Origin: a bacterium
Lineage (GTDB): Bacteria > UBA8248
Assembly: GCA_965219955.1 (NCBI GenBank)
Contig: OZ244799.1
Location: forward strand, 2,816,001 to 2,880,000
Length of the DNA: 64,000 bases
Direction: 5' to 3'
In this document: positions 1 to 61,531 of the stretch, one piece after another
Position numbering within the stretch: position 1 is the first letter of the stretch
Layout: the number at the start of each line of letters is the position of its first letter
Position numbers and translations under genes: made by a program
Notes under the pieces: model-generated
Seen by the model: the letters and a program-made list of their open reading frames with translations, nothing else
Databases searched by the model: none
What the model was told of the DNA's origin: nothing

Positions 1-56
1 TGTGATGTCCTCGGGAGGGCGCGTCCATCCTTTCGTTTACCGGCACGCACGCGCCA

Positions 57-215
57 GGATACGTAGGAGTTATAATTCATCCGTTTCCGATTTGATTACA
101 TTCTGCAGAAACTGGCTTGAAAACGAGAAAGAAAACATTGAACTATCTCCAATAAAATTAACGCGATATCGAAGTATCCCAGTCGTCGACAATCCCCCGA
201 TGTCTAAAACGGGCG
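57..215 (+). repeat. Module-boundary element, copy 1 (GGATACGYAGGAGTTATAAT...TTTGATTAC...TCTnAAAAC)
   Basis: Aligns by eye with 3744-3903, 7105-7265 and 9657-9790. The ATACG-to-GATTAC distance is 35 bp in all four copies. Confidence 0.75.
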
Positions 216-490
216 GAAGCGCCAAAAGGCAATTTGATCGAGGTGTATGTGAGGCTAAGAAAGATTTTTGTGGTCTGTTTGCATGGTTTTCTTGAAGTGG
301 AGCAGACCATCTCATCCGACATCCAGATGGGATGGGCCTTGAAAGATCCAACGCATCTTTCGATTTAAAAGCGAGATTTTGCGAGTTATTGAGGCTTGAT
401 TGATTAAAAACAATACCTTGGAATCATTAGACTAAGTCAACGAAACACCTTATGCCTCTGATGCGTTGAACTCCAGATTCCGAGGACTGG

Positions 491-640
491 CAACGAGATG
501 GATGCCTCCTCCCGACAACACCAAACTGTGACGAAGTGACTTCGCTTGCCGTCCTAAAGGAGGCATCCATGGCACAAGTTAGCATAGTCGGGGTCGCCCT
601 GGAGAAACAGAGCTTCCAATTCCACGGTGCGCGCCCGAAA
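491..640 (+). mobile_element. IS110-family (IS1111-like) left end plus about 24 codons of degenerate transposase
   Basis: 13-bp inverted repeat ATGGATGCCTCCT (498-510) / AGGAGGCATCCAT (558-570) ending at ATG 569. MAQVSIVGVALEKQSFQFHG resembles the IS110 N-terminus (GIDLAKxxFQxHG) with the catalytic Asp lost. Confidence 0.7.
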
Positions 641-802
641 CGTGTCGAATTTGGCCAGAATGCGCATGGCTTCCAGAGGTACCTTCACTATGATCGGATG
701 CCCTGCGATGGCCTCTTCCAATATTCTCTCGCGAAAGGTAAAAAGATTGCGTGGCATAGCGACACCTAACGGTTCCTAATTGGTAAAAGGCGGGATTTCA
801 TA

Positions 803-2029
803 ATGGCGATTTCCACCGTAGCTGAGTTTCTCGAATGCATCGAGAGAAGCAGAAGTGACGACGAAACAGAACTTCTGTACCGTGGACAAGCCGACGCCAA
901 ATGGATCGTGGATTGTTCTGCGGTGCGTCGACTCAGAGCCGATCATAACTTTGCGATTGATTCAACACTCATCGGGCACGCTTTGGTCGGATATTTGGAT
1001 GACCTGTTGAACAAGGCGTCACAATATGTCGGTAAGTGCCCGGAACTACCCGGAGGGTGTACCGATCTTGAAGTCCTCGCCCAGCTCCAACATCAGGGAG
1101 CAGCCACCGGACTAATCGACTTCACCTTGGAACCACTCGTGTCCCTCTGGTTCGCGTGCAGTGGGTACCCAACCGAAGACGGTGCGGTGTACGTCCTCTC
1201 CCGCTCCGACGTACAGGAAACAGATGAAGCCGAAGTTCGGGAAAACGGGGTGCTGAAATACTTTTACGGAGCTGGCACAAAAGACTGGGACGATCCTCCC
1301 TACCTGTGGTGTCCTGGTGCGATGTACGGAAGACCCGCTTCCCAAGAATCCGTCTTTATTCTGGGGGTCCCGTTTCTGTGGCCTGCTTTGCTCAATAAAA
1401 TAGTGATTGACAAGAATTTCAAGCAACCTTTACTCGAAGAGCTACGTATCGCACATGGCATCGCGGAAGAAAAGCTGTTTCCCGATCTCTCCGGTTATGC
1501 ACACGCCAACTCGGTCTCCAAACCCTTCGACATGAAGCGCTTTATTCGGTTTTGGGAAAATCGAGTAGAATGGTTTACGAACAACGCAGAGAAAGCACAA
1601 GCGTATGTCGACTGTGGGCTTGCCCACGCCGCAATCAAGCAATACGAGTTTGCCATTGAACGGTACACCGAAGCGATCACTTTTGACGCTGAGAATATAG
1701 GAGCCTACGTCAATCGTGCAAGAACGAGGCAATTGCTTGGCGACCAGACGGAAGCTCTCGCGGACTACAACACAGCGCTTCTAATGTGCGGAAGAGCGGA
1801 AGGACTTGATTCCCGGCAAATCGCTCGTGTCCACTGGAATAGAGGCCAGGCGTACTTTGCATTGGGGCAGGAAGAACAGGGTTGCGCGGACTACAATCGG
1901 GCAATAGGGCTTGGACACAAGTTGTACTTCTACGACAATGGTAAAGACGGAGCACGAATAAATGCCCACCCAGAGTACCTAGAAGAGTATAAGCCATTTA
2001 CCAATGGTGAAGACAGGTCCACGAAATAA
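803..2029 (+). CDS. FRG domain-containing protein with C-terminal TPR repeats
   Basis: YRGQ...W, LAQLQHQGAATGLIDFT..PLVSLWFAC FRG motifs; TPR-like repeats AYVDCGLAH, AYVNRA, HWNRGQAY. Confidence 0.85.
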   Translation: MAISTVAEFLECIERSRSDDETELLYRGQADAKWIVDCSAVRRLRADHNFAIDSTLIGHALVGYLDDLLNKASQYVGKCPELPGGCTDLEVLAQLQHQGAATGLIDFTLEPLVSLWFACSGYPTEDGAVYVLSRSDVQETDEAEVRENGVLKYFYGAGTKDWDDPPYLWCPGAMYGRPASQESVFILGVPFLWPALLNKIVIDKNFKQPLLEELRIAHGIAEEKLFPDLSGYAHANSVSKPFDMKRFIRFWENRVEWFTNNAEKAQAYVDCGLAHAAIKQYEFAIERYTEAITFDAENIGAYVNRARTRQLLGDQTEALADYNTALLMCGRAEGLDSRQIARVHWNRGQAYFALGQEEQGCADYNRAIGLGHKLYFYDNGKDGARINAHPEYLEEYKPFTNGEDRSTK

Positions 2030-2336
2030 TTCGTGCGTATGTTGGGTCCCTTCGGCATTGTGTTTCTGTATGGCTTCCTTGGCTATCACTTCAAGAAAGT
2101 TCGGCAACTGGGGTAATGGACGACCAACACCTGAGCTATGTACTTAAGCGTGACAGCGTGGTTCGCCGCTTTCAGTTTTCAGCAAGGAATAGCTACAAGG
2201 GGATTCGAGTCATGAAATGTCCGACGTCGTACTAGGGTAGCCTGATCCGTTGCTCCACGGACCTCATGTCCGCGGCAGCCGCGGTCCTAGTGGTTATCAC
2301 AGCCCCTTTCTTACTCTCTTGAACAGGAGAACCAAC

Positions 2337-2696
2337 ATGAAGTCGCCTATTCGATCCGCAATGCTCAGCATCATGGCGCTAGCGCTTCTCACGGCTTGTA
2401 CCGCCGATATGAAAAATGAAAATGGGCGACTGACCGTAGAGTCACAGGCTCCTTTTATTGTTCCTTTCGGATTATTGCTGGCTTCTACACATACGGCAAT
2501 ACAGGCCGAGTGCAATGATATAAAAAGAAGAACAACAGATTCTGGCCCAGGCCAAGGACATGCACTTGCGCCGGATTACCAAAAGGTCACGGAATGGACC
2601 ACAGCCATTAAAACCTTCTTTGGTTTGCTTCCTATCAATGAATATAAATGGGTTGGAGAATGCGATTACGAGGGAGAGACCGCTAAAGGGAATTGA
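2337..2696 (+). CDS. Hypothetical lipoprotein
   Basis: AGGAGA RBS, ATG 2337, signal peptide with lipobox LTAC, two further Cys. Confidence 0.65.
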   Translation: MKSPIRSAMLSIMALALLTACTADMKNENGRLTVESQAPFIVPFGLLLASTHTAIQAECNDIKRRTTDSGPGQGHALAPDYQKVTEWTTAIKTFFGLLPINEYKWVGECDYEGETAKGN

Positions 2697-2699
2697 GTG

Positions 2700-2912
2700 A
2701 TGAATTACAAGGTTACATCTAAGAACAATAGGAGCAATACTATTAAAGCTAACGATGTTCGTATGCGGTTCATCGACTCAAAGCTTATGGTTGTTTTTCT
2801 GTTAGGAAGTCCTAGGCAAATTCAAATGGAAGGAGCACAGGTAAAAGCGATGTTTGAGTTCGACAATATCAAAAGCGTTGTGAGGGAGCAAATGCGAAGC
2901 TCTGACAAATAA
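2700..2912 (+). CDS. Small hypothetical protein
   Basis: ORF directly downstream of the lipoprotein; no recognisable motif. Confidence 0.4.
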   Translation: MNYKVTSKNNRSNTIKANDVRMRFIDSKLMVVFLLGSPRQIQMEGAQVKAMFEFDNIKSVVREQMRSSDK

Positions 2913-3104
2913 GCGCTCCCACTAGGACCGCAATCCCCGGCGGGAGCAAACCACGAGAACACATACCTTCACCACAAAGGAGTAAGACCATGTCACATTT
3001 CAATGCTCGTGTCCTCGCGGTCCAAAAGTGTTCTATCTAAAACATCCCTCTCAAGATCCGCAGTTCCTACACGGATCCTCCCGATAATCAATGAGCGTCC
3101 CGTT

Positions 3105-3404
3105 TCAGCTTGAGCATGGCTCATCCGCGACCTTCTCCACGTTATAAACGGGTGACTCATGTTCGACCACTTTGACGAAAGAGTAGCGGGACCTAGCGTG
3201 CTCGAATGCGCGCTCGCAGGCATTCTCGTGAGCCGAGAAGGTCGTGATTTGCAGCAGATACCCGCCGTCGACGGCAGCTTCTACTCACCATTCTTCGCCT
3301 AGGTTTTGAACGATCCTGTAAGGGAAGTCGTCGGTAGGCTCATGGATAGCTTCTCTTGGGGGCTCAAGTTTGAACACCTTGGCATGGGTTTTAAGTTTGC
3401 CCAT
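3105..3404 (-). pseudogene. About 99-codon hypothetical ORF interrupted by an in-frame TGA (3285-3287)
   Basis: Manual translation MGKLKTHAKVFKLEPP...GEEW*VEAAVDGGYLLQ...EPCSS*; not in the ORF track. Confidence 0.3.
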
Positions 3405-3684
3405 GAGGAAATACTTAGCTAGCTAGGTCAAAAGACCCATAGTATCGATTTAATATGAACTTGATGTGCCTTTTGCGGTGTTATCATGGTTTAAATATGA
3501 CCATTCATGGCGCGGGCGTCATTTCCCGCGGCCTGGAACTCGTAAGCGGTCGATCTGTAAAGTCCGGTGAACTATTCGACGAGGAGACGTAGTGATCGAT
3601 CCATATCCACCGAATCCCGAGGCGAAAGCGTTCAGGCGGTGCATCTCAACGCTCAGCATGTCCATCCCATCGGTTACGATTTGC

Positions 3685-3727
3685 GGCCTGTTAGGAGGGG
3701 TCGTTGCCGAGCCCCTCCTAACAGGCC
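3685..3727. repeat. GC-rich palindrome GGCCTGTTAGGAGGGG...CCCCTCCTAACAGGCC (relatives at 9587-9629, half copy at 7071-7086)
   Basis: 16-bp perfect stem; related hairpins precede boundary copies 2, 3 and 4. Confidence 0.7.
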
Positions 3728-3743
3728 CGACTTGCCCGCCCTA

Positions 3744-3903
3744 GGATACGCAGAAGTTTGATTTCGCCCACTTCCGATTTGATTACGTATTGCAGATAAG
3801 CAAATCCCCAACGAAATTCCCAAAAACGGATACCCGCAATAATATCAACAAGCTACAAGAATTCCCCACCCGCTGGAAACAACCCACCGTCTCAAAACAC
3901 GCG
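3744..3903 (+). repeat. Module-boundary element, copy 2
   Basis: Closest to copy 3 (shared ATACCnGCAA, TCAACAAnCTACAAG, AAAACACGCG). The IS256 stub is truncated at its right end. Confidence 0.8.
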
Positions 3904-4304
3904 GCAACAACTCCGAGCGAAAGCACCGCCCCGCCCCCGACCTGTCCCGCGTCCGGGGAACACCAATCCGCACCGCACCGACACCCGTCAAAACCTCCCG
4001 CGACGGCAGGTAGCCGCCCAGCACCACCGCGCGACGGCCTCGCGTGTCTCGCTCGGTAGAATGCTCTTCCAGAAAGGTCCCCAACTCCGCTTCCACCGCC
4101 CGGCGGATGATTCGCTGCGCGCCTTCGCGCACCAGTTCGCTCAACTCCTCTCGAAAGGCTGGATTCGTAAAGGGAATCGTCGTATCTTTGTGCATGGTGG
4201 CGCATCTCCTGTTTGCTGAATGACAGGGCTTCTCACAACCCCATTCCAGCAGGAATGCGCCGCCTTCTTCAATTCAACCCATACACAAGATCTGAGGGTA
4301 ACTC
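3904..4304 (-). mobile_element. Truncated IS256-family element (left end plus N-terminal about 95 codons of transposase)
   Basis: LSELVREGAQRII..AVEAEL...GRRAVV.GGYLP.REVLTGVGAV.I.VPRTRDR matches the IS256 transposase N-terminus. GAGTTACCCTCAGATCTTGTGTATGG at 4304 resembles an IS256 terminal IR. Confidence 0.85.
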
Positions 4305-4322
4305 CATAATATAGTGTCCTCC

Positions 4323-6227
4323 CTAAAACGCCCCGGTGACGCCGACGAGGAAGACATCGGAGCGCGCCGAGGCGTCACTGTGCGTTTGGTCCGGCATTAT
4401 CTCGCCGTTTTCGTCCTTGATGTTGCCGCCGCTGATGAAGTTCAAGGGTGTGTATCCATCGACACGGATGTATTCGGCAAAGAGCTTCACGCTGGGCCGG
4501 GGCAACCAGGCCACGCCCAGGGCAAGCTGGTTCTGGCGCTCCCACGGCGCGTCATCCGGACCGGCGACGAATCGGCTGAGTTCGATGGAAAAATCCAGAG
4601 GGCCGCGACTGGAGTCGTACCTGTATCCGGCCCCGACCCTGAAGCTCGTCACCTTGCTCGCCGGGAATTGCGGGATGCCGGGGTTGAATGTAGCGGGCCA
4701 CTCATTCAGCGTACGGATGAACTCGCCCCCGATATTGAGATTGCCATGGACGAGTTTTCCGTAAACGCCTGAAGCCGGGTTGTTGTCCTTGCAGGGCGCG
4801 AAATGAACAACCGGAAAATCCTGGCAATAAGCCGTCCCGCGCAGGTATGACCCTCCCAGGAGAAACGTGCCCCAGGAAGCGAGTTCTACCGTGTAGTTCG
4901 CGTCGACGGTGAAGTTGTTCAGTTTGCTCGGGACCGCGGTTCCGTTCACCGGGGTGTTTGCGGCCCTGAACTGCGCTCCTCCCTGCACGCCCATGAAGGA
5001 GAGGTTCAACCCGTCGCTGGAATAGCCCAGCTTCAAGCCGTTGGCCAGCCCTCCGAAGGCGTGCCAGACGCTCGAGGCGGAGAACGGATTGACGGTATCC
5101 GTGAGACCGAAGGGAATCGCCATCTTGCCCAGGCTGGCATAGAGCGGCGACCTGTCGAGATTCCCGATCAGGACCCAGGCGCGCCGCAATTGCAACTGGT
5201 TGCGTTCCAGGTCCGTATTGGTTCCCTGGCCGAAACTCTGTTGCGGATCATAGAGAATCTCGGCGTTGGCGGTAATCCACCCGCCGAGCGCACCCGTGAA
5301 TCCGAGTTGCGCCGAATGGATCGCCGCCTCGGAAACCACGGTCCCCGCCTGATTCTTTGCGGTCGGGTGGCGCATCAGGTATCCGAACTTGTTCTCCCTG
5401 TTGCTCGACTGGTAATCGGCTATCGCGGTGACCGCACCGTGCAGGTGAACGCTGTCCGGGGCGAGTACGCCCTCTTGCTTGCGCTGGAGTATCAGGCGTT
5501 GCTTGGAGTTGATGTTCGTCGTCGGGTCGAGGATCTCGTAGCCGAATTGCGGGTCGATCTGGATGAATCCGGTTTTGGCTCTGACGGGCGCTGCCTCCCT
5601 CGCGGATACATCCACTGACAGGTCGCCCGAAGCGTAGCGGACGAAGCCGCCCGCTTCCACTTGCGCGGAGCTCCCCTCGAGCGAAGGCGTCAGCACGAGG
5701 TTCTCCCCGAAGCGCGAAGAGCGTGAGCTTTCGGGCGGTGCGCGAACGCGGCTTGCATCCCCGTCGACTCCGGGCAGGCCCGGCGCCGCCTCGCCGGTAT
5801 CCGCCGGCGTCGTGGCCGTGGCGACCGCAGAGGGAGGCCCCGCTCCCGACTCGCCGACCGCCGAGACGCGGTAGTGGTACGTCGTGCCTCCCGGGAGGCC
5901 CGAGTGCCTGTACTCCGTGTCCCTGACGCCCGTCTCGGGGACAAGGTCGCTCCAGCCCGCCTCCTCTTCGCGGACCTCTATCCGGTAGCTCAAGAACGCC
6001 GATTCGCTGACCGAAGGTGCACGCCAGGACAGGAGGATGACCGAAGGCCCCTCCGCCCGCGCCGTGAGGCCGCCGGGCACGGTCGCCGCCGTGCCGTTGA
6101 ACAGAGTGGCGGCCTCGGTCCCCTTGCTCCATACTTCGATGACGGCCTGGGCATGGGCCAGCCCGGCGGAGGCCGGTGCCATGACGGCGAGGAGGACGAG
6201 ACACGCCGCGAGACTGCTCCACCACAA
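4323..6227 (-). CDS. Fibronectin type III domain plus outer-membrane porin-like beta-barrel protein
   Basis: Signal-like N-terminus; FN3 motif (LSWRAP...YRIE...GLPGGTTYHYRVSAV); amphipathic beta strands; C-terminal Phe. Start uncertain. Confidence 0.75.
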   Translation of the reverse strand: MWWSSLAACLVLLAVMAPASAGLAHAQAVIEVWSKGTEAATLFNGTAATVPGGLTARAEGPSVILLSWRAPSVSESAFLSYRIEVREEEAGWSDLVPETGVRDTEYRHSGLPGGTTYHYRVSAVGESGAGPPSAVATATTPADTGEAAPGLPGVDGDASRVRAPPESSRSSRFGENLVLTPSLEGSSAQVEAGGFVRYASGDLSVDVSAREAAPVRAKTGFIQIDPQFGYEILDPTTNINSKQRLILQRKQEGVLAPDSVHLHGAVTAIADYQSSNRENKFGYLMRHPTAKNQAGTVVSEAAIHSAQLGFTGALGGWITANAEILYDPQQSFGQGTNTDLERNQLQLRRAWVLIGNLDRSPLYASLGKMAIPFGLTDTVNPFSASSVWHAFGGLANGLKLGYSSDGLNLSFMGVQGGAQFRAANTPVNGTAVPSKLNNFTVDANYTVELASWGTFLLGGSYLRGTAYCQDFPVVHFAPCKDNNPASGVYGKLVHGNLNIGGEFIRTLNEWPATFNPGIPQFPASKVTSFRVGAGYRYDSSRGPLDFSIELSRFVAGPDDAPWERQNQLALGVAWLPRPSVKLFAEYIRVDGYTPLNFISGGNIKDENGEIMPDQTHSDASARSDVFLVGVTGAF

Positions 6228-6629
6228 GGTCAGGGGCCGCCGGTCGGGGGGGATACAGGCGGGTGTTCGGCTTCTTCGGTCTCGAGCCCCTCGATGAACT
6301 CGGGACAGGCTCTGCCGATGACGAGGGAGCCGGCTTGCGCACCCCGTTCGGGCGCTGCGCGCTCATGCCGCCCTCTTCTTCCAGATGACAGACTATTGCC
6401 GATGCCGACTCCGGTTGCAAGCCCCACCAACCTCTCCACGCGATGTCTCATTTCTGAATCTACTTTTCCCGGTATTGCGAGGGAGCCGGACCAGCGGTTC
6501 CCCTCCCCATGGAACGTCTATTCATTTTTTGCTTGAAGTTTACCAAAGTCATATGTATTTATCATATCTATACTCTTGTTATATATATCATTAACATATA
6601 TAATTCTGTTTTCCGCCCGGGAGGCAGGG

Positions 6630-6712
6630 ATGATGAACGGAAGCGAAGAGGAGGGGCGCATCTCGCGGCTGTGCGCGGCGTCGGCTACACGATGCCGGAG
6701 CCGGGCGAGGGG
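6630..6712 (+). pseudogene. Collapsed relic of a hybrid sensor/OmpR-type regulator gene (first and last codons only)
   Basis: GGAGG RBS plus MMNGSEEEGRISRLCAA overlapping VRGVGYTMPEP (trans_reg_C end); homologous to 9231-9569. Confidence 0.6.
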
Positions 6713-7104
6713 CAGCGGTCACGACACGGTAACGATTCGGTGGCAGTGTGATGGCCACGCTGAAACCGGCGGCTGCATGAAGTATGGTCCGAAAGGAGTC
6801 AGACCAGCGCCCTCACCACTTCGGCAGTGGCAGGAGATTCAGGCGTCCCGGTGAATCAGCAGCATTCTCGCTGACCGTGGGGGACATCGGCCCGCGCCGT
6901 TGGCACTCACTCAGGAGAGTCCGTGATTCGCTCTATCACCCCAGTGGCGAACACATATATGAACGGAGTTACCGTTCAGTCGCGGGGTGATGAGCATCAA
7001 GAATTCGCCGGCCCAAACCGGATACACCATGCTATACCAATAACTGCTTCCGGGTTTTGCGCCATTATCACCCCTCCTACCCGGCCTCCGACTGAGACGC
7101 TTCC

Positions 7105-7265
7105 CCATACGCAGGAGTTATAATTCGCCTTCTTGCGTTTTGATTACTTGTTGCGGGAATCGAATCTCCGAACCAAATTCGAAAAAAACAAATACCTGCA
7201 ACAGTTTCAACAAACTACAAGGATTCCACGGCCGTTGAAAATACCCCACTGTCTGAAAACACGCG
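7105..7265 (+). repeat. Module-boundary element, copy 3
   Basis: ATACGCAGGAGTTATAATTC...TTTGATTAC...TGTCTGAAAACACGCG. Confidence 0.8.
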
Positions 7266-7295
7266 AAAGAGGGCGAAGAACCACGCGCCAGCTTT

Positions 7296-8659
7296 TCATG
7301 TGGAACGGGTCGCCAGCAACTCCGCAACTTCTTCGGCTGCGTCGACGCCGCTGGCCAGGGCGCCGTTCACAATGGGCGACCGCATGTAGTCGCCCGCCAG
7401 AAAGAGATTCTTCACGTCCTGGTTGAGTCGAGCGCGCATATCCACTATCGCCTTGAACATGCCGGGCAGCCCCATGCACACGGCCTCTCGCCAGCGGTAC
7501 ACGCGGGTAAACAGCACCTCGTCGTCGCCGGGAAGGTTGGAGCCGGGAGGAGGGTTCCGGCGCACGTCGGCGAGCATCCGGCGCCTGATCTCCGCATCGT
7601 CGAGCGGAAGCAGTTCCTCAGCGCGGTTCTCGCCCACCCAAAGGTCCAATGTGCTCTTACCGGGCGGTGCGCAGGCGGGCAGGTTGATGGTCCGGTCCAA
7701 GAGCGCCGGGGTGTCGTCTTCGGGGTACAATGCGACAGACCAGCCGGGGGGGAGCGGCCGGTGGTCGAGGCCGACTACTACTCGAATCCCGCGCGAGTAA
7801 GTTACCTTGCCGAGCGCGTGGCGAATCCCGGGCGGCAGGTCGGGGATAAGTTCCAGCGCCTTCGTGGCTTGCACGGCGCAGATGACGGCGTCCGCCTCGA
7901 TGAGGCCGGCGTCGGTGATCACGCCCGTCACGATCCCGTCCCGGATGACCACCTGCCTGACGGGCGTCGAGAGGCGAATATCGGCTTCCGAGGCGTCGGC
8001 CAGGGCGTAGGACAGGGAACTGCAGCCCTCCTCCGGCACGTAGAGCTGCTCGGGTTTCAGCAGAACTTCTCCCAGAAATGCCCGAATCCACGTCGCGCCG
8101 AAGTCTTCGGGGTTGCCCATCGTCAATTCCAGGAACCCCTCCAACGTCACCCTCAGAGACTCGGGAATACCAAGTCTGTCGAGGTAGTCGCCGTAGGTCT
8201 CTTCCCCGTCGAGCTCGGCGATTTTGTGGTCGCTGGAGTAATTCAGGTACTCCGAATCGTCCTTGATGCTCTTGACCAGCTTCAGGGTCGGCCACAACCC
8301 CCGAGGCGACAGGAACTCTAACGTCCAGAACGGCGCCAGGTTGCTGATGAAGTCGCCGAGGGATTCAATCGGCCTCGTCACAACCCATCGACCCTTTCTG
8401 CGCCAGTCGATGTTCATCTTCGTGCGAATCAAGGGTAACCCCAACTCCTCGCACAAGCGAAATGCGACGTCGTAACAGGCCGGGAAGAAGTCCGCGCCCG
8501 CATCCACCGAAAAGCCATCCACCCTGTCGCCGCCCATGCGTCCGCCTATCTGGTCGTTGGCCTCGAGCAAGATGGATTCGATGCCGCGTTTCTTGAGCGT
8601 GTACGCCGCGCTAAGTCCGGCCGCCCCCCCCCTATAATTACAACGGTATTCTTTCTCAT
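7296..8659 (-). pseudogene. FAD-dependent oxidoreductase (protoporphyrinogen/amine oxidase family), frameshifted in a G9 tract
   Basis: ATG 8659 MRKNTVVII followed by G9 (8624-8632). Adding one G gives IIGGGAAGLSAAY..LEA..IGGR (GxGxxG). C-terminal LFLAGDY...GALASG. Confidence 0.8.
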
Positions 8660-8710
8660 GTAGCTTTCCTCATGGATGTAAAGTTATCGCAACATTCTTA
8701 TGGGTAGGCA

Positions 8711-8944
8711 TCATGAATGATTCCTGTCGATGGCGATCAGCGCGTTGTCGGATGAGGAGAAGGTGTGTTCCAGCGCATCGAAAGCAAGGAGGTAAGGGTT
8801 GTCCTTTTGGAACAAAATGCGGTAATCGCTCGCAACGGTGATGAATCGCCCGCCCGCTCCCGCGATGATCATCAGCAAAACGGCCAGCGTTATGATCAGC
8901 CACCAGTGGCGCAAAACGGCGTCGATGTATCGGTCCAGTTGCAC
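8711..8944 (-). pseudogene. N-terminal fragment of an MMPL/RND-type membrane transporter
   Basis: RHWWLIITLAVLL..AGAG...DYRILFQKDNPYLLAFDALEHTFSSSD is typical of MMPL N-termini; only about 77 codons remain. Confidence 0.65.
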
Positions 8945-9230
8945 GAGTATTATCGCATCCTCATCACGGGTAGCCCGTGAATCATGACGGACGGCATGAT
9001 TCGCTCCGGTTTGTCGCCTTTGTCGCCGCCCCCGCCGCAAGAGGTTGTATTGTTCTCCATTCAAAGGAGTCGCGGCGGGGACGACTCGCCGTCCGGATGT
9101 GGTCACCGGAATCAGCTTTCATTTTACAAAAACTTTATATCTGTTTCATATCTGAATTATTTATTTTCATATTATTATCGTGTACATTTGCGTTTTTTGC
9201 CGTATTTCCCGCTCACGGGAGGCGCTGACG

Positions 9231-9569
9231 ATGAACGGATGCGACGAGGCTTCGGAAGATCGCATACCGCGGCCGTGCGCGGTCCTTGCGCGGACCACCG
9301 CGAGCCTGGACCCCGGGACCGTGCTGCGCGAGATCGTGGAGGGCGCGGCCGACTACATCGTCAAGCCGTTTTCCACAGTGGAACTCACCACGCGGGTCGG
9401 GGCCGAGCCCTTCGTGCTCGGTGAGCTCGCCATCGACTGCGAGCGGCGGCTCGTGAGCATCGGCGGCCGCCCCGTGGAGATGACCGCCACCGGGTACGAA
9501 TTGCTGCGCCGGGTCTGGACCCGGCGCTATGACGCAAGCGCGGCGTCGGCTACAGGATGCCGAAGCTAA
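9231..9569 (+). pseudogene. Multiply deleted relic of a hybrid GAF/kinase/response-regulator gene
   Basis: ASLDPGTVLREIVEG fused to GAADYIVKPFS..EL..RV, then EPFVLGELAID.ERR.V.IGGRPVEMTAT.YELLR, and an out-of-frame GVGYRMP end. Confidence 0.7.
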
Positions 9570-9656
9570 GCGAGGCGTAGCGGTTAGGCCGGGTAGGCGG
9601 GGGCATTGCTGCGCCCCGCCTACCCGGCCAAAGGTTACCCCGACAGGCACCCGCCG

Positions 9657-9790
9657 GGATGCGCAGGGGTTTTAATGAACCCGCTTTCATTTTGATTACC
9701 GGCCTGGCAGGAAGGATTTTCAAAAACCTCTTAACTGATATTATTACAGCATCTTACAGGAAAATCGGAACTGCTCGTGTTTCTAAGACG
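9657..9790 (+). repeat. Module-boundary element, copy 4 (most diverged, 21-22 bp shorter)
   Basis: GGATGCGCAGGGGTTTTAAT...TTTTGATTAC with 35-bp spacing; TCTAAGAC 88 bp after GATTAC versus 109-110 bp in the other copies. Confidence 0.6.
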
Positions 9791-9811
9791 AACAAAAGCG
9801 CACTGCCTCTT

Positions 9812-9839
9812 GTAGGGACAGGTCGCGACCTGTCCCTAC
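9812..9839. repeat. GTAG-type REP palindrome GTAGGGACAGGTCGCGACCTGTCCCTAC (also 11867-11894 and 61400-61427; variants near 11976-12042, 19839-19865, 20021, 20070, 21655-21713, 38932-38959)
   Basis: Near-identical intergenic palindromes with a GTAG foot. Confidence 0.85.
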
Positions 9840-9928
9840 GGACCCTCCCTCCCCGGCCAGCAACATACGCCGAATGACAAAATCAGGACTTCTTCAACAA
9901 CCCCGATTCGGTATGAAGTAGGGTAACC

Positions 9929-11782
9929 CTACGCTTTCGACTGCGCGGCGGCCTCCCTGATCCGCCCGAAATACGCCTTGGCGTCGTCGGGCAGGGAGGT
10001 GAAGCGAAGCATCAGCCGCCTCCCCTCCGCCTCCACGACCTTCGCGTAGATTTCGGACACGTCCGCCTCTTCCGCCACCCGCAGCATGAGGTTCGCGTTT
10101 CTCTCGAAGGGGGTTTCCGCCTCCACTTCTATGCAGTTCTCGGAAACCCGCCCGATGGCGGCGGCCACCACCTCATCGGACACCGTCTTGCCCTCTACAG
10201 CGAAAATCCGCGCGTCTATGGGCGAAGCGAGGTCGACGAACGCCTCGGGCGCGGTTTCCGGCATCTCGCACGCATAAGGCCCCGACATGCCCCGCACCTC
10301 GTAGACGCGAACCGGCTCCTCCAGCCCCTTGAAGCGCAGATCCTGGGTCTCACCCACCTGAACGAATTCCGCCATCTTCTGGTAAGTATCCATGCTGATG
10401 AGCACCTGCCCGCTCACGGTGTAGGACTCGATGCGGTAGGCCGTGTTGATGGCCGTGCCCATCGCGCCGTACTTGGTGCGTTTTTCCGAACCGATGTTGC
10501 CGACGATCACCTCGCCCGTGTTGATGGCGATTCCCATGTGAAGATCGGGCATGCCGCGCGCGCGCTGCTCCTCGTTGATCTCGACGAGGGCGCGCTGCAT
10601 CTCCACGGCGCAGGCCACCGCCCGGGCCGAGTCGTCGGGGGCGGCGAGCGGCGCCCCGAAGAACGCGAGAATCCCGTCTCCCTGGAACTCGTCCACCGTG
10701 CCCCTGTGTTTGGTGATGATCTCCACCATCGGCTCGAGGAAACGGTTCACGACATCGATGACTTCGCCCGGCTCAAGGCGCGAGGAGAGGGCGGTGAACC
10801 CCCTGAGATCCGATACCAGGAAGGTCACCTCGCGCACCTCGCCGCCGAGCTTGAGGCCGTCGGGCGAGTTCAGGAGCTCATCCACGATCTCCTTGCTGAT
10901 GTAGCGCCCGAAGGTGTCGCGGATGAAATCGCGCTGCTTCAATCCCTCGATCATGCCCTCGAACGAAGTGGCCAGACGGCCCACCTCGTCGTGGCTTCTC
11001 TTCTCGGGAACGGTGACGTCGAGGTTGCCCCGGCTCACCTCTTCCGCCGCGCTCGTCAGGTTCCTGATCAGGCGCAGCATCCGTGAGGAGATGAGCCAGA
11101 AGAGGATGAGGCCCAGGGCGACCAGGATGATTGTGAAGCGGAGCAGCTTGAAGGTGTTCGTCGCCACCTGCTCGGCCACGGGGTTCGCGAGCTTGTTGAG
11201 CACGAGGATGGCCACGACCTTGCCGCCCAGCTTGAGCGGCGTGTTGAGCTGCAGGAACTGGTCGAACTCGCGGTCCCCCACCTTTCCGCCGAAGAGCCGG
11301 GAGCGCATCATCTCGCCTTTGTTCCAGGTCTCGTTCGTGGCTTTGAAAGTGGCGGGAAATAACTGGTGCAAGTGGACGTCCTGACCAATCTGAAAGCTGT
11401 CGTGTCCGGCGGCGACGTATTCGTAGCTGCCGTTCGGCCGCCTGCGCATGATGATGGCGTTGTCCACGCCCGAGTTCCGCTTGATGCGCCGGAGCACGGC
11501 GAGCACTTCCCTGTACTCGGCAGTATTCTTGTCGGCGGGGATCCTCAGGCTGTGGACGGCTTCCGCGTCGATGAACGAGGTGGCGCGCTCGGCGATGAAC
11601 TCGAGTTTGGCCGAGAGCACGTTGAGCTCGTAGTTGTAGCTCGATTGATAGTAGCGATAGGACATCGGGACGATGGCGACGATGAGAATGATCAGGACGA
11701 GGATGAGGCTCTTGAAGACGATGGAACAGTAAAACCCCTGCTTGGCTGGAACTTCAGGCTCGACACTGCTGGATTGGGACAT
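9929..11782 (-). CDS. Membrane-bound class III adenylate/guanylate cyclase (2 TM, HAMP, C-terminal PilZ-like domain)
   Basis: HAMP (DEVGRLATSFEGM); SDLRGFT, EFQGDGILAFFGAP and GNIGSEKRTKYGAMGTAINTAYRIES motifs. Start moved to ATG 11782 because the longer ORF begins inside a REP. Confidence 0.92.
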   Translation of the reverse strand: MSQSSSVEPEVPAKQGFYCSIVFKSLILVLIILIVAIVPMSYRYYQSSYNYELNVLSAKLEFIAERATSFIDAEAVHSLRIPADKNTAEYREVLAVLRRIKRNSGVDNAIIMRRRPNGSYEYVAAGHDSFQIGQDVHLHQLFPATFKATNETWNKGEMMRSRLFGGKVGDREFDQFLQLNTPLKLGGKVVAILVLNKLANPVAEQVATNTFKLLRFTIILVALGLILFWLISSRMLRLIRNLTSAAEEVSRGNLDVTVPEKRSHDEVGRLATSFEGMIEGLKQRDFIRDTFGRYISKEIVDELLNSPDGLKLGGEVREVTFLVSDLRGFTALSSRLEPGEVIDVVNRFLEPMVEIITKHRGTVDEFQGDGILAFFGAPLAAPDDSARAVACAVEMQRALVEINEEQRARGMPDLHMGIAINTGEVIVGNIGSEKRTKYGAMGTAINTAYRIESYTVSGQVLISMDTYQKMAEFVQVGETQDLRFKGLEEPVRVYEVRGMSGPYACEMPETAPEAFVDLASPIDARIFAVEGKTVSDEVVAAAIGRVSENCIEVEAETPFERNANLMLRVAEEADVSEIYAKVVEAEGRRLMLRFTSLPDDAKAYFGRIREAAAQSKA

Positions 11783-12137
11783 GCTCACGCCTCCGGCGGC
11801 GGCTCCAGAGGCCAGTATACACCACACGCGCGGGGGGAAAAGCCGAAAACATGGGGGATATCCACCGTAGGGACAGGTCGCGACCTGTCCCTGCACCGCC
11901 CCCTTTTGCCTGTGCTCACATTCCGGCGCATTCCGGAATAACGAACCAGAGCATGGGCATAGACGGGATTACCCCGCAGGGACAACCCTCCGTGGTTGTC
12001 CTTTGTCGGGGCGTCAGGACAGGCACGGAGGCCTGTCCCTACAAAAACCGCTCCTCCCCGGTCGCCTCCTCGCCTTGAAAACCAACCCCCCTACCCCCCT
12101 TGTCAGGGCTTGTTGAAAAAGCCAGAGGAGAGAGGAA

Positions 12138-19276: not shown

Positions 19277-19681
19277 CCGTTTTCTCCCGTTAGATAATTT
19301 GGTGAACCCTGATTCGGTGAATTATATACAATCCTGCCCGAAGGGGGTTATTGAAAAAGCCTTCTTGCGGCGCAATCCTCTTCTTCGTCCTGCACTGCCC
19401 GCCGCTCCGCCTCACCCTGAGTAGCGGCCCCTCGACTTCGCTCGGGGCAGGCTCCGCCGTCCCCACCACTTTCCTCACCCTGAGTAGCCGCCGAAGGCGG
19501 CGTATCGAAGGGCGAAGTTCGTGCCCCCCATCCTTCGATACGGCGCTTACGCGCCTACTCAGGATGAGGGTTTGGGGCGCTTGCCCGGGATGAGGGCGTC
19601 AAGGGGGGAGTGGTTCTTTTCACTCCCGTGAATTGGCGACGGCTCTCAAGGGGTCAAATCCAAACGATGTGGGAAAACCAC

Positions 19682-19818
19682 CGTCATTCCGGCGAAAGCC
19701 GGAATCCATTTGCCTTTCGTTTTTATACTGTCATTTACGAACTGAACATCGAGAAATGGAAATACCGCAATATGCGCCCCCCGTCTCTTTTTGGATTCCG
19801 GCTTTCGCCGGAATGACG
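19682..19818. repeat. Paired palindrome CGTCATTCCGGCGAAAGCCGGAATCCA...TGGATTCCGGCTTTCGCCGGAATGACG (also 36190-36404; half copy near 21849)
   Basis: Perfect inverted pair with variable spacer; resembles dRS3/RPE-type repeats. Confidence 0.85.
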
Positions 19819-29527: not shown

Positions 29528-31273
29528 CTACTTGGGCGGAATGACCGGCAAGAGCACGTGGGAGGGATGCTCGGGGCCGGTGTGGATCGTCACCTCGCCG
29601 CCGAATACCTCGGGCGGCCGGTCGACCGGGTCGTTGTGCCTAAACGGCCCCACGCCCGAGAACACGGCGGGCATGTTGGGAAGCCCCTGCGTGACGCCTC
29701 CCGGATAGACGTAGTCGCATCCCCGGATGCTCAAAGCCAGGCGATACCCTTTGGGAACCACGATGCAGGTGGGCCATATCTCGACGTCGAGTTCGTATAT
29801 CTCGCCCGGCGTCAGCGGCTGAATCTCGTCGTGCGCGTGGTAGGGCCGGTAGGGCAGCGTGAGATTTTCATCGAGCTTTCGGTGCGAGGCCCGGAGCCAG
29901 CCCTGGGCCACCGGGGTGTGCGGGTCGAGCGCGCCCTGGAAGGTGACTTCCCTGAAATCGGGCGTGAACAATCTGAGAACCAGGAACAGATCGGCGTCCT
30001 GGGTCTCGGACGACACCCACAGCTTCGACGCCAGGGGGCCGGTGATCTCGGTTTCACGCTTCAAGGGAGGCGAGACGAACGTGACGCCGTCGCTCAAGCC
30101 GGCATAGGCCGCCGTACCCGCCTCCTCCGGCGCGGCCTCGCCGAGCAGGTGGCCTTCCGCATGGAGATAGAGCTTCGTCCAGTTCGTGCGCGCGATGGGC
30201 CACTCGTTCTCCGCGCGCTCCACGAACTTCTCGCCCGGGTGGCGAATCTTGAGCTGCACCCTCGGCTGATCCTTCCAGCCCGTGTCCTCGCCCTTCAGGT
30301 AATGGCCGAAAAATTTCTTCTGGAGCGCCACGCCGTAATCGGTGTAAAACTCCGTCCAGTGCTCGATGCCGTGGCTCTCCAGCCATTTCTCCTTTGAGGC
30401 CGCGCGCATGAAGGCCTCGCAGTTCCCCCTCGGGTGAAGACCCTGCCCGCCCCAGTTGTTCGAAGACAGGAAAGGCACTTCCACTTTCGACCAGTCGGGC
30501 GTTTTCGCCTGCCAGTATTCGTCATCGAGCGGATGCGCGCGCATCTCCGCCCCCAGGCGGCAGCGGTTCGCGCCCAGTTCCTCCTCGCTCAGCGTGTCCG
30601 GCCCCGAGACCCAGTCCCCCGTCACCCGGCTCTTGTAGCCGCGCTCGCCCAGGCCGTGCTGCTTGGAGCGGCCCCTGTTCTGATACCAGTTCTCCGTGAA
30701 GGTGCAGTAGATGCCCCCGTGGTAGTTCATGTCGCGGTAGAAATCCGCCGCCCCCTCCCAGGCGCACATGGCGACGAGATGAGGCGGCTTCAGGCACGCG
30801 ACCTGCCACTGGTTGATGGCGTAATAGGAGATGCCGTTGGCCCCCACCTTCCCGTTGCTCCAGGGCTGCACGCCCGCCCACTCGATGCACTCGTAGAAAT
30901 CGCGCGTCTCGCGATCCGAGAAGGGGTCCATATACCCCGGCGAGCGGCCGGCACCCCTCGAATCCACGCGCACGCAGGCGTAGCCGTCCGGCACCCATTT
31001 CTCGGGGTCCACGACTTCCCAGTTCTGGTACTTGTTCGAAGAACCCAGGGCGACGTCGGGGTGTTCCTCCACCATGCGCCGCCACTGCTCGGGATAGCCG
31101 TCCTCGAAGTGGAGCCACTTCCCGTAAATCCCGTATGTGATGATGACGGGATAGCGGCCCTCATCAACAGGCCGGTAGACGTCGCAGCGCAGCACGAGTC
31201 CGTCGTCCATCTCGACCGGAACCTCCCAGTCGATCCGCATGCCGTCGGCAATTTCCGATTTACGCCCTCTCAT
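29528..31273 (-). CDS. CocE/NonD family hydrolase (peptidase S15), paralog 2
   Basis: DSRGAGRSPG, WSNGKVG..GISY, GWLRASHR; C-terminal jelly-roll domain. Confidence 0.93.
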   Translation of the reverse strand: MRGRKSEIADGMRIDWEVPVEMDDGLVLRCDVYRPVDEGRYPVIITYGIYGKWLHFEDGYPEQWRRMVEEHPDVALGSSNKYQNWEVVDPEKWVPDGYACVRVDSRGAGRSPGYMDPFSDRETRDFYECIEWAGVQPWSNGKVGANGISYYAINQWQVACLKPPHLVAMCAWEGAADFYRDMNYHGGIYCTFTENWYQNRGRSKQHGLGERGYKSRVTGDWVSGPDTLSEEELGANRCRLGAEMRAHPLDDEYWQAKTPDWSKVEVPFLSSNNWGGQGLHPRGNCEAFMRAASKEKWLESHGIEHWTEFYTDYGVALQKKFFGHYLKGEDTGWKDQPRVQLKIRHPGEKFVERAENEWPIARTNWTKLYLHAEGHLLGEAAPEEAGTAAYAGLSDGVTFVSPPLKRETEITGPLASKLWVSSETQDADLFLVLRLFTPDFREVTFQGALDPHTPVAQGWLRASHRKLDENLTLPYRPYHAHDEIQPLTPGEIYELDVEIWPTCIVVPKGYRLALSIRGCDYVYPGGVTQGLPNMPAVFSGVGPFRHNDPVDRPPEVFGGEVTIHTGPEHPSHVLLPVIPPK

Positions 31274-31298: not shown

Positions 31299-33047
31299 TC
31301 ATCCTTTCGGCGGAATCACCGGCAGCAGTACGTGGGACGGACACGACGGGCCGGTGTGCAGCGTCACCTTTCCGCCGAAAAGCTCCGTCGGCCTGTCCTC
31401 TTTCAGATCGTGCTTGAACGGCCCCACGCCGTAGTAGACGCGGCCCGATATTCTGGGCGCTGACGGCTCGTAGCCGGGCCAGACGTAATCGCGCCCCCGG
31501 ACGCTGATCGCCAGGCGGTATTCCTTGGGGATCACGATCGAGGTCGGCCAGATCTCGACGTCCAGTTCATATATCTCGCCGGGCGTAAGCGGCTGAATCT
31601 CGTCGTGCGTGTGGTAGGGCCGGTAAGGGAGCGTGAGGGCTTCATCGAGTTTCCGGTGCGAGGCTCTGAGCCAGCCGATGGCCACGGGCGTGTGCGGGTC
31701 GTTCGCGCCCCGGTAGACGATCTCCGTCATGTCCGGCGTGAAGACGCGCAGGGTGAGGAAGAGGTCCGCATCTTCGGTATCGGAAGAGACGAACAGCTTG
31801 GCCGCCACGGGGCCGGTGATCTCGGTTTCCTCGGCGAAGGGATGCGAGACGTAGACCAAGCCGTCGCCCAGGGCGTCATAGGTCTTCGTCCGCTCGTTGG
31901 TCTGGGGTTCCGCCCGGAAGGTGCCCGAACCCGAGTGGAGGTAATACTTCGTCCACTGCGTGCGCGCGATGGGCCACTCGTTCTCAGCTCTCGGCACGAA
32001 TTTCTCACCCGGATGCCGCACCAGGAGCTGGACTCTCGGCTGCTCCTTCCAGCCGGTGTCCTCGCCCTTCAGGAAATGACCGAAAAACTTCTTCTGGAGC
32101 GCGACGCCGTAATCGGTATAAAACTCCGTGAAATGCTCCAGCCCGTGCATCTCCAGCCATTTCTCGTCGGTGGCCGACTGCACGAAGCCCTCCGTGTTGC
32201 CCCTGGGGTGCAGACCCACGCCGCCCCAGTTGCCCGAGGAAAGAAGAGGCACGTTGATTTTCGAGTAATCGGGCATGCGCTCTTTCCAGTAATCATCCAC
32301 GAGGGGGTGATCCAGAATGTCCTGGCCGAAATCGCTCCTGTTGGAAGCGAGTTCCTCTTCGCTCAGGTTGGCGGGGCCGGAAATCCAGTCGCCGTTGATG
32401 CGGCTCTTGATGCCGCGGTTTCCCTTGCCGTGCTGGCGGGGGACGACGGCCTGGCGGTACCAGGTGTCCGAAAACCGGCAGGCGATGCCGCCGTGGTGGG
32501 CCAAGTCGCGGTAGAAATCGGCCGCCCCCTCCCAGACGCACATGGCCGCCAGGTGCGGCGGCTGGAGCGAGGCCACCTGCCACTGGTTCATCCCGTAATA
32601 GGAGATGCCGTTCAGCCCCACCTTCCCGTTGCTCCAGGGCTGCACGCCCGCCCACTCGATGCAGTCGTAAAAATCCCTGGTCTCGCGCGGCGACCAAACC
32701 TCCAGATAGCCCGGCGAGCGGCCCGCGCCACGCGAGTCCACGCGCACGCAGGCGTAGCCGTCGGGCACCCATTTCTCGGGGTCCACGAGCTCCCAGTTCT
32801 GGTATTTGTTGGTGGTGCCCATGACGGTCTCGGGATAGTCGTTCACCATGAGATTCCACTGGTGGGGGTAGCCGTCCTGTAAGTGAAGCCACTTGCAGTA
32901 GGGGCCGTAGCTCATGATGACGGGGTATTGGCCATCCTCAAGGGGCCGGTAGACGTCGCAGCGCAGCACCACGCCGTCGTCCATCTCGATAGGCACGTCC
33001 CAGTCGATCCGCATCCCGTCTCTTGCCTCGCTCTTGTACTCGCTCAT
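31299..33047 (-). CDS. CocE/NonD family hydrolase (peptidase S15), paralog 1
   Basis: Same motifs as paralog 2; AAAGG RBS before ATG 33047. Confidence 0.93.
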   Translation of the reverse strand: MSEYKSEARDGMRIDWDVPIEMDDGVVLRCDVYRPLEDGQYPVIMSYGPYCKWLHLQDGYPHQWNLMVNDYPETVMGTTNKYQNWELVDPEKWVPDGYACVRVDSRGAGRSPGYLEVWSPRETRDFYDCIEWAGVQPWSNGKVGLNGISYYGMNQWQVASLQPPHLAAMCVWEGAADFYRDLAHHGGIACRFSDTWYRQAVVPRQHGKGNRGIKSRINGDWISGPANLSEEELASNRSDFGQDILDHPLVDDYWKERMPDYSKINVPLLSSGNWGGVGLHPRGNTEGFVQSATDEKWLEMHGLEHFTEFYTDYGVALQKKFFGHFLKGEDTGWKEQPRVQLLVRHPGEKFVPRAENEWPIARTQWTKYYLHSGSGTFRAEPQTNERTKTYDALGDGLVYVSHPFAEETEITGPVAAKLFVSSDTEDADLFLTLRVFTPDMTEIVYRGANDPHTPVAIGWLRASHRKLDEALTLPYRPYHTHDEIQPLTPGEIYELDVEIWPTSIVIPKEYRLAISVRGRDYVWPGYEPSAPRISGRVYYGVGPFKHDLKEDRPTELFGGKVTLHTGPSCPSHVLLPVIPPKG

Positions 33048-36121: not shown

Positions 36122-36449
36122 GGGGTTGTTGGAAAACCCCATCAAGGAGGAAGTGATGCCTGCGCTTCCGCCCGGTTTTCGGTTTTGACCGTCATTCCGG
36201 CGAAAGCCGGAATCCATTTTCGCCTTTGCCTTTTCGCCCCCTCGCTCGGCCGTCTTTGCACCCGGGCGGGGAGGCTTGGAATCGCACGCGAAAACGAAAG
36301 GCGAATTCTCTGGATTCCGCGTCCGGACGCCGCGCGAGAACAAAGTCGTGGCCGCCCCGCCCGGTGAAAAGTCAAAATGGATTCCGGCTTTCGCCGGAAT
36401 GACGGCGGTGGTCAATTCCGAGCGCGGGGGATTTTTCCAACAACCCCCC
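36121..36449. mobile_element. Composite TIR-shell element with a GTCATTCCGGCG palindrome pair as cargo
   Basis: AGGGGTTGTTGGAAAAC ... TTTTTCCAACAACCCC. Confidence 0.6.
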
Positions 36450-61396: not shown

Positions 61397-61531
61397 TTTG
61401 TAGGGACAGGTCGCGACCTGTCCCTACGGGAATAACCCTCGCTCCCCACCCCCCATCTGGCATCCCCATGAACGGCCTGCTAGAATCGCCGGAGGTTTTG
61501 CCCCTACACGAAAGATGCGGAGGAACCGCCC

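Follow-up and report, generated by a model that had tools for sequence, protein, structure and literature searches.

A bacterial chromosome (GTDB lineage Bacteria; UBA8248; assembly GCA_965219955.1, contig OZ244799.1) carries, near the left end of the 64,000-nucleotide stretch at positions 2,816,001 to 2,880,000 (the window), four copies of a repeat of ~180 nt that we call E. The copies are named c1 to c4, and the genome is referred to as G000. E is probably the integrase-distal (P) arm plus crossover core of the attP and attR sites of a family of integrative elements that encode two adjacent tyrosine integrases, IntA and IntB. The evidence for this comes from island boundaries with direct repeats, from empty sites in related genomes, from the integrase genes and their domains, and from motifs shared between E and the region upstream of intA. 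The integrases would bind E and excise the elements, and the inner copies of the array would be integrase-less ends of earlier or nested elements.

Island boundaries and empty sites

An island at G000 3691438-3727211 has clean empty sites in relatives. Chromosomal homology to relatives stops at G000 3691310 or 3691437, and in G003, G013 and G011 the left flank continues straight into the sequence to the right of the E copy p3727043, with the matches overlapping by 11–12 nt. In a five-way alignment the empty site reads ...CAGAAATTTATCGAAAAACCCCGT..., and attL tracks it through AATTTATCGAAA before it turns into the intA-proximal arm. On the other side, attR consists of E up to ...AAAAATCT and tracks the empty site from AATTTATCGAAA on. 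The alignment of attL, attR and the empty site thus defines a 35.8-kb insert with clean flanks, bounded by the 12-nt direct repeat AATTTATCGAAA, in which E lies on the island side and its right tip forms the core.

The target AATTTATCGAAA is located within a dispersed repeat of ~340 nt that has many copies across the genus and is split by the 35.8-kb island into halves at G000:C1:3691311-3691437 and 3727200-3727414. The motif CCCCGTGAATTTATCGAATTTTTCGG follows 9 of 45 E copies.

A larger insertion ends within the window. Its left flank, G000 2732903-2734240, lies 170–600 nt from the cyclase gene that borders c4 on the right (Table 1) in five of nine relatives' loci (G016, G002, G012, G003 and G017), and right-hand homology picks up at window positions 9864-9927 in all nine, none of which has an E at this locus. 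Since the flanks are adjacent in relatives and no E is found there, the 91.1-kb segment from ~G000 2734694 to window position 9796 is, judged by sequence comparison, an insertion. It begins with the intA arm and the intA/intB pair, contains two relaxase genes, and ends with the array of four E copies. The comparison of related genomes for gain and loss that the original prediction had proposed therefore finds E copies at synteny breakpoints. The window locus is less clean than the island at 3691438-3727211, because its right junction holds ~25 nt more than the empty sites.

Palindromes that resemble repetitive extragenic palindromic (REP) sequences and belong to several families (GTAGGGACAGGTCGCGACCTGTCCCTAC, CGTCATTCCGGCGAAAGCCGGAATCCA) occur at window positions 9812-9839, 11865-11895, 61399-61429, 19677-19711, 36189-36227 and others. 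REP-like palindromes flank the integration site and vary among relatives.

Another junction is found at the right end of c2, where homology to an insertion sequence (IS) begins at position 3901 and the IS is cut at its nt 406. Intact copies of this IS read ATACGGCGGCAAAAG where E reads AAACACGCGGCAAC, and ATACGGCGGCAAAAG resembles the commonest E tip, AAACGGGCGGAAAG. A full IS copy elsewhere in the genome carries a PF00872 transposase (L022:2176-3396). In G002 the same truncated IS and its downstream gene are 95–97% identical to those in G000, and they are preceded by another E that is ~79% identical to c2, so that the identity between the two genomes changes at the tip of E. Two further E copies, at G000 4086209 and at locus L054 of G003, each border a tRNA-Ser gene at its 3' end, and that gene end (TGGCGGAG...) again resembles the tip AAACGGGCGGAAAG.

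These junctions bear on the possibility that E is itself the target, a dispersed host repeat with attB that receives the islands. Such a role would suit its many copies, some of which are solitary among core genes, as at G000 3966356, where a partly deleted copy lies between an ABC-transporter operon and a RidA-like gene, and the islands do target another dispersed repeat. However, empty sites at two loci contain no E, G000 and G002 have different E copies at a shared junction, and the variants of E change in step with the intA-proximal arm of the island to which they belong; we regard this explanation as very unlikely. A specific version of it, with the crossover at TTTGATTAC, had been prompted by the likeness of E to the sequence upstream of intA and by a synteny break that occurs in at least ten relatives within ~100 nt of the lone E at 3966356. 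It was rejected on the basis of the empty sites and the G002 comparison.

The E repeat family

The original prediction had described four same-orientation copies of a 135–160-bp unit with conserved boxes and spacing. MAFFT alignment and a repeat search confirmed four copies in one orientation at the places given, and the unit proved to be a real repeat that is slightly bigger, ~180 nt. The distance from AT[AG]CG to GATTAC is 35 nt in all four. From GATTAC to TCT, a regular expression gives 109 nt in c2 and 110 nt in c3, and the position ruler gives 109 nt in c1 (TCT at 203) and 88 nt in c4 (TCT at 9782), all as predicted. The shortness of c4 is a gap within the variable middle of E, and the TCTnAAnAC box is off by one base in c1 and c4. 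The boxes likened to IHF sites were also correctly placed, with TATCAACAAGCTA at 3843 in c2 and TTTCAACAAACTA at 7205 in c3; to call them near matches was apt, since the exact WATCAANNNNTTR is absent from both strands of window positions 1-10000. Likewise, the extra box shared on the left of c1 and c2 was found as GTCCATCC at 23 and 3660.

The proposed comparison with shuffled sequence places the likeness above chance: CGNTTTGATTAC occurs three times in the window against 0.03 expected, and none of 100 shuffles got to three. A profile built from the four copies, which had also been suggested, recovers 12 further copies in the 4.28-Mb genome with E-values from 1.5e-31 to 3.3e-08, plus a few fragments. 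The four repeats are thereby confirmed as real and as more than a chance likeness.

In total the genome contains 16 full E copies, and R1, a sequence-only covariance model of E, gives 18 matches. The original prediction had named genome-wide scatter without synteny breakpoints as the result that would speak against it; the repeat is indeed scattered genome-wide, but the tested copies do mark insertion boundaries. Within the genus, R1 matches number 0–57 per genome and are present in 18 of 22 genomes; over all genomes searched with the model they come to roughly 500. Matches were also obtained in three of seven genomes from another family of the same class, and there was no match in the other 11 genomes searched with R1. 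Most matches cover the whole model. E is often grouped in arrays of one orientation, with as many as 11 members spaced 1–12 kb apart; in G022, the region from 2442689 to 2516959 holds eleven. When 131 distinct copies are reduced to a consensus, the strongly conserved blocks are CGAC, ATgCGC, GGaGTT..AAT, CCGCTTtCG.tTTGATTAC and ATaaTaTCAA and a terminal CG.A.

A pattern scan of a species collection returned at least 118 stretches, with 120 profile matches among them, 84 of which cover at least 160 model positions. Among the matches listed, records titled Nitrospinaceae / Nitrospinota, Candidatus Poribacteria, Chloroflexi and Gammaproteobacteria hold a full-length E, and in Rhodospirillaceae records part of E is present (model positions 2-131). 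This spread across phyla is a lead only, because metagenome bins may hold contamination. A full-text literature search found no description of this E and IntA/IntB family.

Length and boxes that are kept over 131 distinct copies could also be expected of a small structured RNA, or of a promoter or 5' leader of a neighbouring gene, and the E copies of G000 often have the start of an opposite-strand gene immediately to their left. Against this, Rfam gives no match to E at gathering or permissive thresholds, and folding of 16 or 44 sequences with RNAalifold yields no consensus structure for either strand (mean z-scores of -0.43 and -0.70). In relatives, the left neighbour is equally often a co-oriented gene that ends before E. 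Such a role therefore appears extremely unlikely, and a promoter or 5' leader on the reverse strand in particular was rejected for the inconsistent orientation of the neighbours in relatives.

Two further candidates were set aside. A miniature inverted-repeat transposable element or transposon end does not agree with the location of 13 of the 16 copies on one strand, the head-to-tail arrays, and the lack of an inverted E partner among the repeats listed. A bridge RNA of an IS110-type element was rejected because only a 16-residue fragment lies by c1, no such gene is found at the other copies, and the genome's 10 IS110-type genes are elsewhere. The fragment is an IS110-like N terminus (MEQIHIIGIDL...) located just left of the window on the minus strand at G000 ~2815900-2815960, and a longer IS110-like N terminus is found beside an E in G006 (L066 1959-2336). 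The 5' part of a group II intron (RF02005, 99 bits; L006 1-190 = G000:C1:1950502-1950691, minus strand) lies 210 nt left of another E.

Paired integrases and the proposed attachment site

The genome contains seven pairs of adjacent tyrosine-recombinase genes (Table 1 locates five of them). IntA and IntB are paralogues of ~390 residues whose reading frames abut or overlap, and both contain an arm DNA-binding domain (PF13356), a SAM-like domain (PF14659) and a catalytic domain (PF00589). The pair that belongs to the element in the window begins at G000 2734889, 81 kb left of c1, in agreement with the earlier suggestion that a recombinase may lie to the left of the window. No recombinase gene lies within 5 kb of any E copy in this genome.

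In five of the seven pairs, the first gene is preceded, 20–60 nt before its start codon, by GTTTGAtgccg..cgtatgcgNTTTGATTAC, which matches the left-half boxes of E. E and the arm upstream of intA have GTTTGA..(22 nt)..TTTGATTAC in common, and GGATRCGC, GTTnnAAT and CCGCTTTCG-N-TTTGATTAC recur upstream of intA. In G002 and G022, weak partial matches to the E model (positions ~3-90) are situated directly upstream of five intA genes.

Individual arms can also be paired with individual E copies. The arm at 3691607 and p3727043 have TTGATTACGGA and the 12-nt repeat in common, the arm at 2561309 and p2644699 share TTTGATTACGG and an 11-nt repeat, and the arm at 1849105 and p1950902 share TTGATTACAGACTC. 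An E that shares a terminal repeat with an intA arm also shares the bases beside TTGATTAC. Within the window the best match to an arm is that of c1, which shares CGATTTGATTACAT with the arm upstream of intA at G000 2734861. This co-variation fits two arms that would be read by the same integrases, and it may be due in part to shared descent of subfamilies.

The TrwC relaxase genes of the genome, four in number, are all located inside islands headed by integrase pairs. Directly left of c1 there is a block of genes for TrwC, a TrwB-type coupling protein and a 1751-aa helicase; a VirB4-type ATPase (PF03135) gave no match in the genome. The proximity of this block, ~700 nt from c1, would agree with a transfer-related function of E, as an origin-of-transfer (oriT)-like site for the TrwC relaxases, and so would an E in G012 (L046) that lies ~290 nt from the 3' end of a relaxase gene, together with the confinement of all relaxases to these islands. 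E may also resemble a known nic region. On the other hand, 16 full E copies stand against four relaxase genes, copies border tRNA and IS sequence and mark the edges of insertions, and no hairpin is conserved. An oriT-like role is thus highly improbable.

The reading of E as an attachment-site arm can be put as follows. Each element would carry a relaxase and have at one end E, a ~180-nt integrase-distal arm with a crossover core of 10–13 nt at its right tip, and at the other end the two translationally coupled, P4-like integrase genes. In the circular form, attP would consist of E, the core and an arm of ~180 nt upstream of intA. Once the circle has integrated at a short sequence that matches, the intA arm and E would lie at opposite ends of the element. 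The junctions found point to a dispersed repeat, an IS, a REP-flanked intergenic spot and the 3' end of tRNA-Ser as targets, and the variable E tip would set the choice. Putative arm-type or bending sites in E are GGATRCGC, GTTnnAAT, CCGCTTTCG-N-TTTGATTAC and an inverted TATCAA ~55 nt further on. The array in the window would be the right end of a 91-kb composite made up of the far-left integrase pair, the relaxase modules and four E-terminated segments. Such arrays could form by insertion of elements beside or inside one another, or by partial excision that leaves E-terminated cargo behind.

The breakpoints, the empty sites and the intA/intB pair support the original prediction's view of the repeats as att-type ends, belonging to site-specific integrative elements that have accumulated at a single locus. 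Its description of them as att/res-like ends needs the modification that each repeat would be one arm plus core rather than a complete site, and that the other arm is found upstream of intA.

Several observations weigh against this interpretation. The right junction at c4 carries the ~25 extra nucleotides, next to a variable REP palindrome. The 10-nt repeat GACGAACAAA pairs the far-left junction with c4, yet the best intA-arm match is c1; this fits a composite in which c1 would be the current element's own arm and c2–c4 older ends. Integrase remnants were not found to the right of c1, c2 or c3, where tblastn of window positions 1-12000 gave nothing better than an E-value of 0.37, nor in a five-copy array of G022 (L075). 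With no integrase remnants at the inner copies, the stacking of whole elements and the loss of their integrases is therefore something that we infer rather than see. An excision joint is absent from the assembled contigs of four public runs that cover the stretch. The intA of the window's element (G000:C1:2734889-2736070) is frameshifted near residue 321, with intB intact, and the element may be immobile for this reason, or the assembly may be in error there. Pairing of island ends by their longest common substring is not significant as stand-alone evidence, as random windows give at least 10 nt in 37 of 1000 cases and at least 11 nt in 12 of 1000; it was weighed only together with positions. 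Finally, at two loci of G022, L072 (3806001-3818000) and L073 (1419001-1429000), an identical block of E plus ~430 nt is fused at each locus to a different integrase gene, truncated in both cases near residue 336-338. These fusions are not explained by the attachment-site model, and the block may represent a separate element with integrase genes as its target.

Attachment sites of this general kind are textbook. As a tentative and rather doubtful extension, the two-integrase family might combine a conserved, portable 180-nt arm with a swappable core of 10–13 nt. Retargeting would then be easy, partial excision or nested insertion would leave E-terminated pieces, arrays of up to 11 "cassettes" could build up behind one integrase pair, and the family could spread across phyla. 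If true, the growth of such arrays would represent a distinct, integron-like route of island growth. Apart from this extension, E provides a sequence tag for the tips of integrative elements that form a large family and had not been annotated before; four islands of 36–102 kb in this genome can be delimited with it, and it accounts for the cassette-array look of variable regions in these genomes. Paired integrases with a conserved arm and a variable core also offer a natural system in which to study how tyrosine integrases change their targets.

Array modules and related systems

The three modules between the E copies (225-3726, 3913-7087 and 7273-9639) contain genes and gene remnants on both strands (Table 1). 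The inner segments lack a second att arm, and the cores of the inner copies differ from the outer core. The segment to the right of c3 with the amine-oxidoreductase gene (window 7286-8741) recurs at G000 3121063-3122518 as a 98% duplicate. This locus was considered as the empty site for c3 and was rejected, as the junction is not clean.

Table 1. Location of E copies, junction features, cargo genes and integrase pairs (window coordinates unless marked G000)
Feature	Position	Strand	Remarks
E copy 1 (c1)	40..222	+	alignment, repeat search, profile; R1 model match G000 2816040-2816219
E copy 2 (c2)	3727..3912	+	alignment, repeat search, profile, R1 model; right end is the junction with the truncated IS
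E copy 3 (c3)	7088..7272	+	alignment, repeat search, profile; R1 model match G000 2823088-2823268
E copy 4 (c4)	9640..9800	+	alignment, repeat search, profile; outermost arm, ends the 91.1-kb insertion
Candidate crossover core GACGAACAAA	9787..9796	+	also at far-left junction, G000 2734684-2734693; empty sites read GACGATCCAAA
HAMP / adenylate-guanylate cyclase gene	9929..11896	-	conserved chromosomal flank; in relatives adjoins the gene left of the 91.1-kb insert
IS256-like (Mutator-family) IS terminal fragment	3901..4306	-	406 nt; cut at E junction
FRG-domain / TPR protein	803..2029	+	c1-c2 cargo; PF08867, TPR families
634-aa protein with fibronectin type III domain	4323..6227	-	c2-c3 cargo; block 95% identical in G002
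Flavin amine oxidoreductase	7296..8570	-	c3-c4 cargo; Pfam
PF00589 integrase pairs	G000 2735498/2736662, 3692273/3693457, 2561975/2563156, 1849740/1850927, 2630371/2629173		Pfam

The original prediction had called the array cassette-like, which stands as an analogy only: each module contains several genes, which are spread over both strands. A more literal form of the idea makes E an independent cassette-boundary site and has single modules moved by E x E recombination, through IntA/IntB acting in trans or another recombinase. The same-orientation arrays with no integrase remnants between copies speak for it, and contigs of two of the four runs (X21 and X22) join the left flank of c4 at position 9630 back to that of c3 at 7070, with two extra letters, as would be expected of a circular or tandemly repeated module. 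This joint is too weak to use, as it involves a short shared flank, CCTACCCGGCC, and metagenome contigs at 90% likeness; it could be a repeat artefact, come from another strain, or reflect a circle or tandem copy of one module. Moreover, the left module borders have no intA-type arm, and the tested junctions sit at the right tip of E and are joined to unrelated targets, not to another E.

Integron attC arrays are similar in that they too are directional, with diverged sites of kept boxes and spacing between unrelated genes. In contrast to attC, E has no palindrome or hairpin consensus (as folded with RNA energy parameters). The original prediction, too, had separated the array from attC, and also from Xer pdif sites; a dif or pdif site has 28 nt, with two 11-nt arms around a spacer of 6 nt. 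IntA and IntB are not of the integron type either: the integron-integrase model TIGR02249, whose cut-off is 265, gives them 37–45 bits, although no genome-wide search for integron integrases was made; they also fall well under the cut-offs of Xer models. The modules, at 2.4–3.5 kb with several genes on both strands, differ from integron cassettes, which mostly hold one promoterless gene and share one orientation. Movement of single modules between E sites is accordingly very unlikely.

The attachment-site reading finds its closest counterparts among the lambda-, HP1- and P4-type tyrosine integrases, whose attP and attR arms consist of arm-type sites plus a core. E resembles these in having an arm of ~170–225 nt with repeated short motifs and a short core shared with the target. 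The predicted N-terminal arm-binding domain of the integrases (PF13356), a tRNA 3' end among the targets, and the empty sites and direct repeats are further points of likeness. The present system differs in having two tandem paralogous integrases instead of one. Its arm is kept genus-wide and beyond while the core varies (AAACGGGCGGAAAG-like, AATTTATCGAAA, GACGAACAAA), and it mostly targets dispersed repeats or an IS, not tRNA genes.

Recombinase-in-trio elements are mobile elements with several tyrosine recombinases. The same trait, more than one tyrosine recombinase gene at one island end, is seen in the islands studied here. It is also reported for strand-biased circularizing elements with intA/intB (PMC10214605, PMC9345347) and for GInts, which carry three recombinases (PMC5385486). 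The islands studied here may be set apart by two close, directly adjacent paralogues that both have arm-binding domains, with no extra core genes seen between them.

Tandem accretion of integrative conjugative or mobilizable elements together with decayed cis-mobilizable derivatives (PMC5704250, PMC7563491), tandem arrays of SGI1 (PMC2297512) and the modular excision of PAISt (PMC4057263) reportedly provide precedents for stacking. As in accretion arrays of this kind, several same-orientation att-type sites lie at one locus between unrelated cargo, with one recombinase module at the end. The array in the window would differ from those arrays in its inner segments, which are without a second att arm or integrase remnant, and in its differing inner cores; accretion would be the process behind it.

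Short dispersed repeats within the cargo, at window positions 8728-8970, 6729-6952 and 9317-9509, have dozens of matches of 73–94% across the genus. Two related stretches, 6576-6990 and 9180-9569, each follow an AT-rich run; by eye they resemble remnants of the C-terminal DNA-binding part of a response regulator, and Pfam gives no match. Outside the array, the segments 29532-30983 and 31306-32757 form a tandem of ~80% identical sequences of at least 1.4 kb, 1774 nt apart, and are probably paralogous genes.

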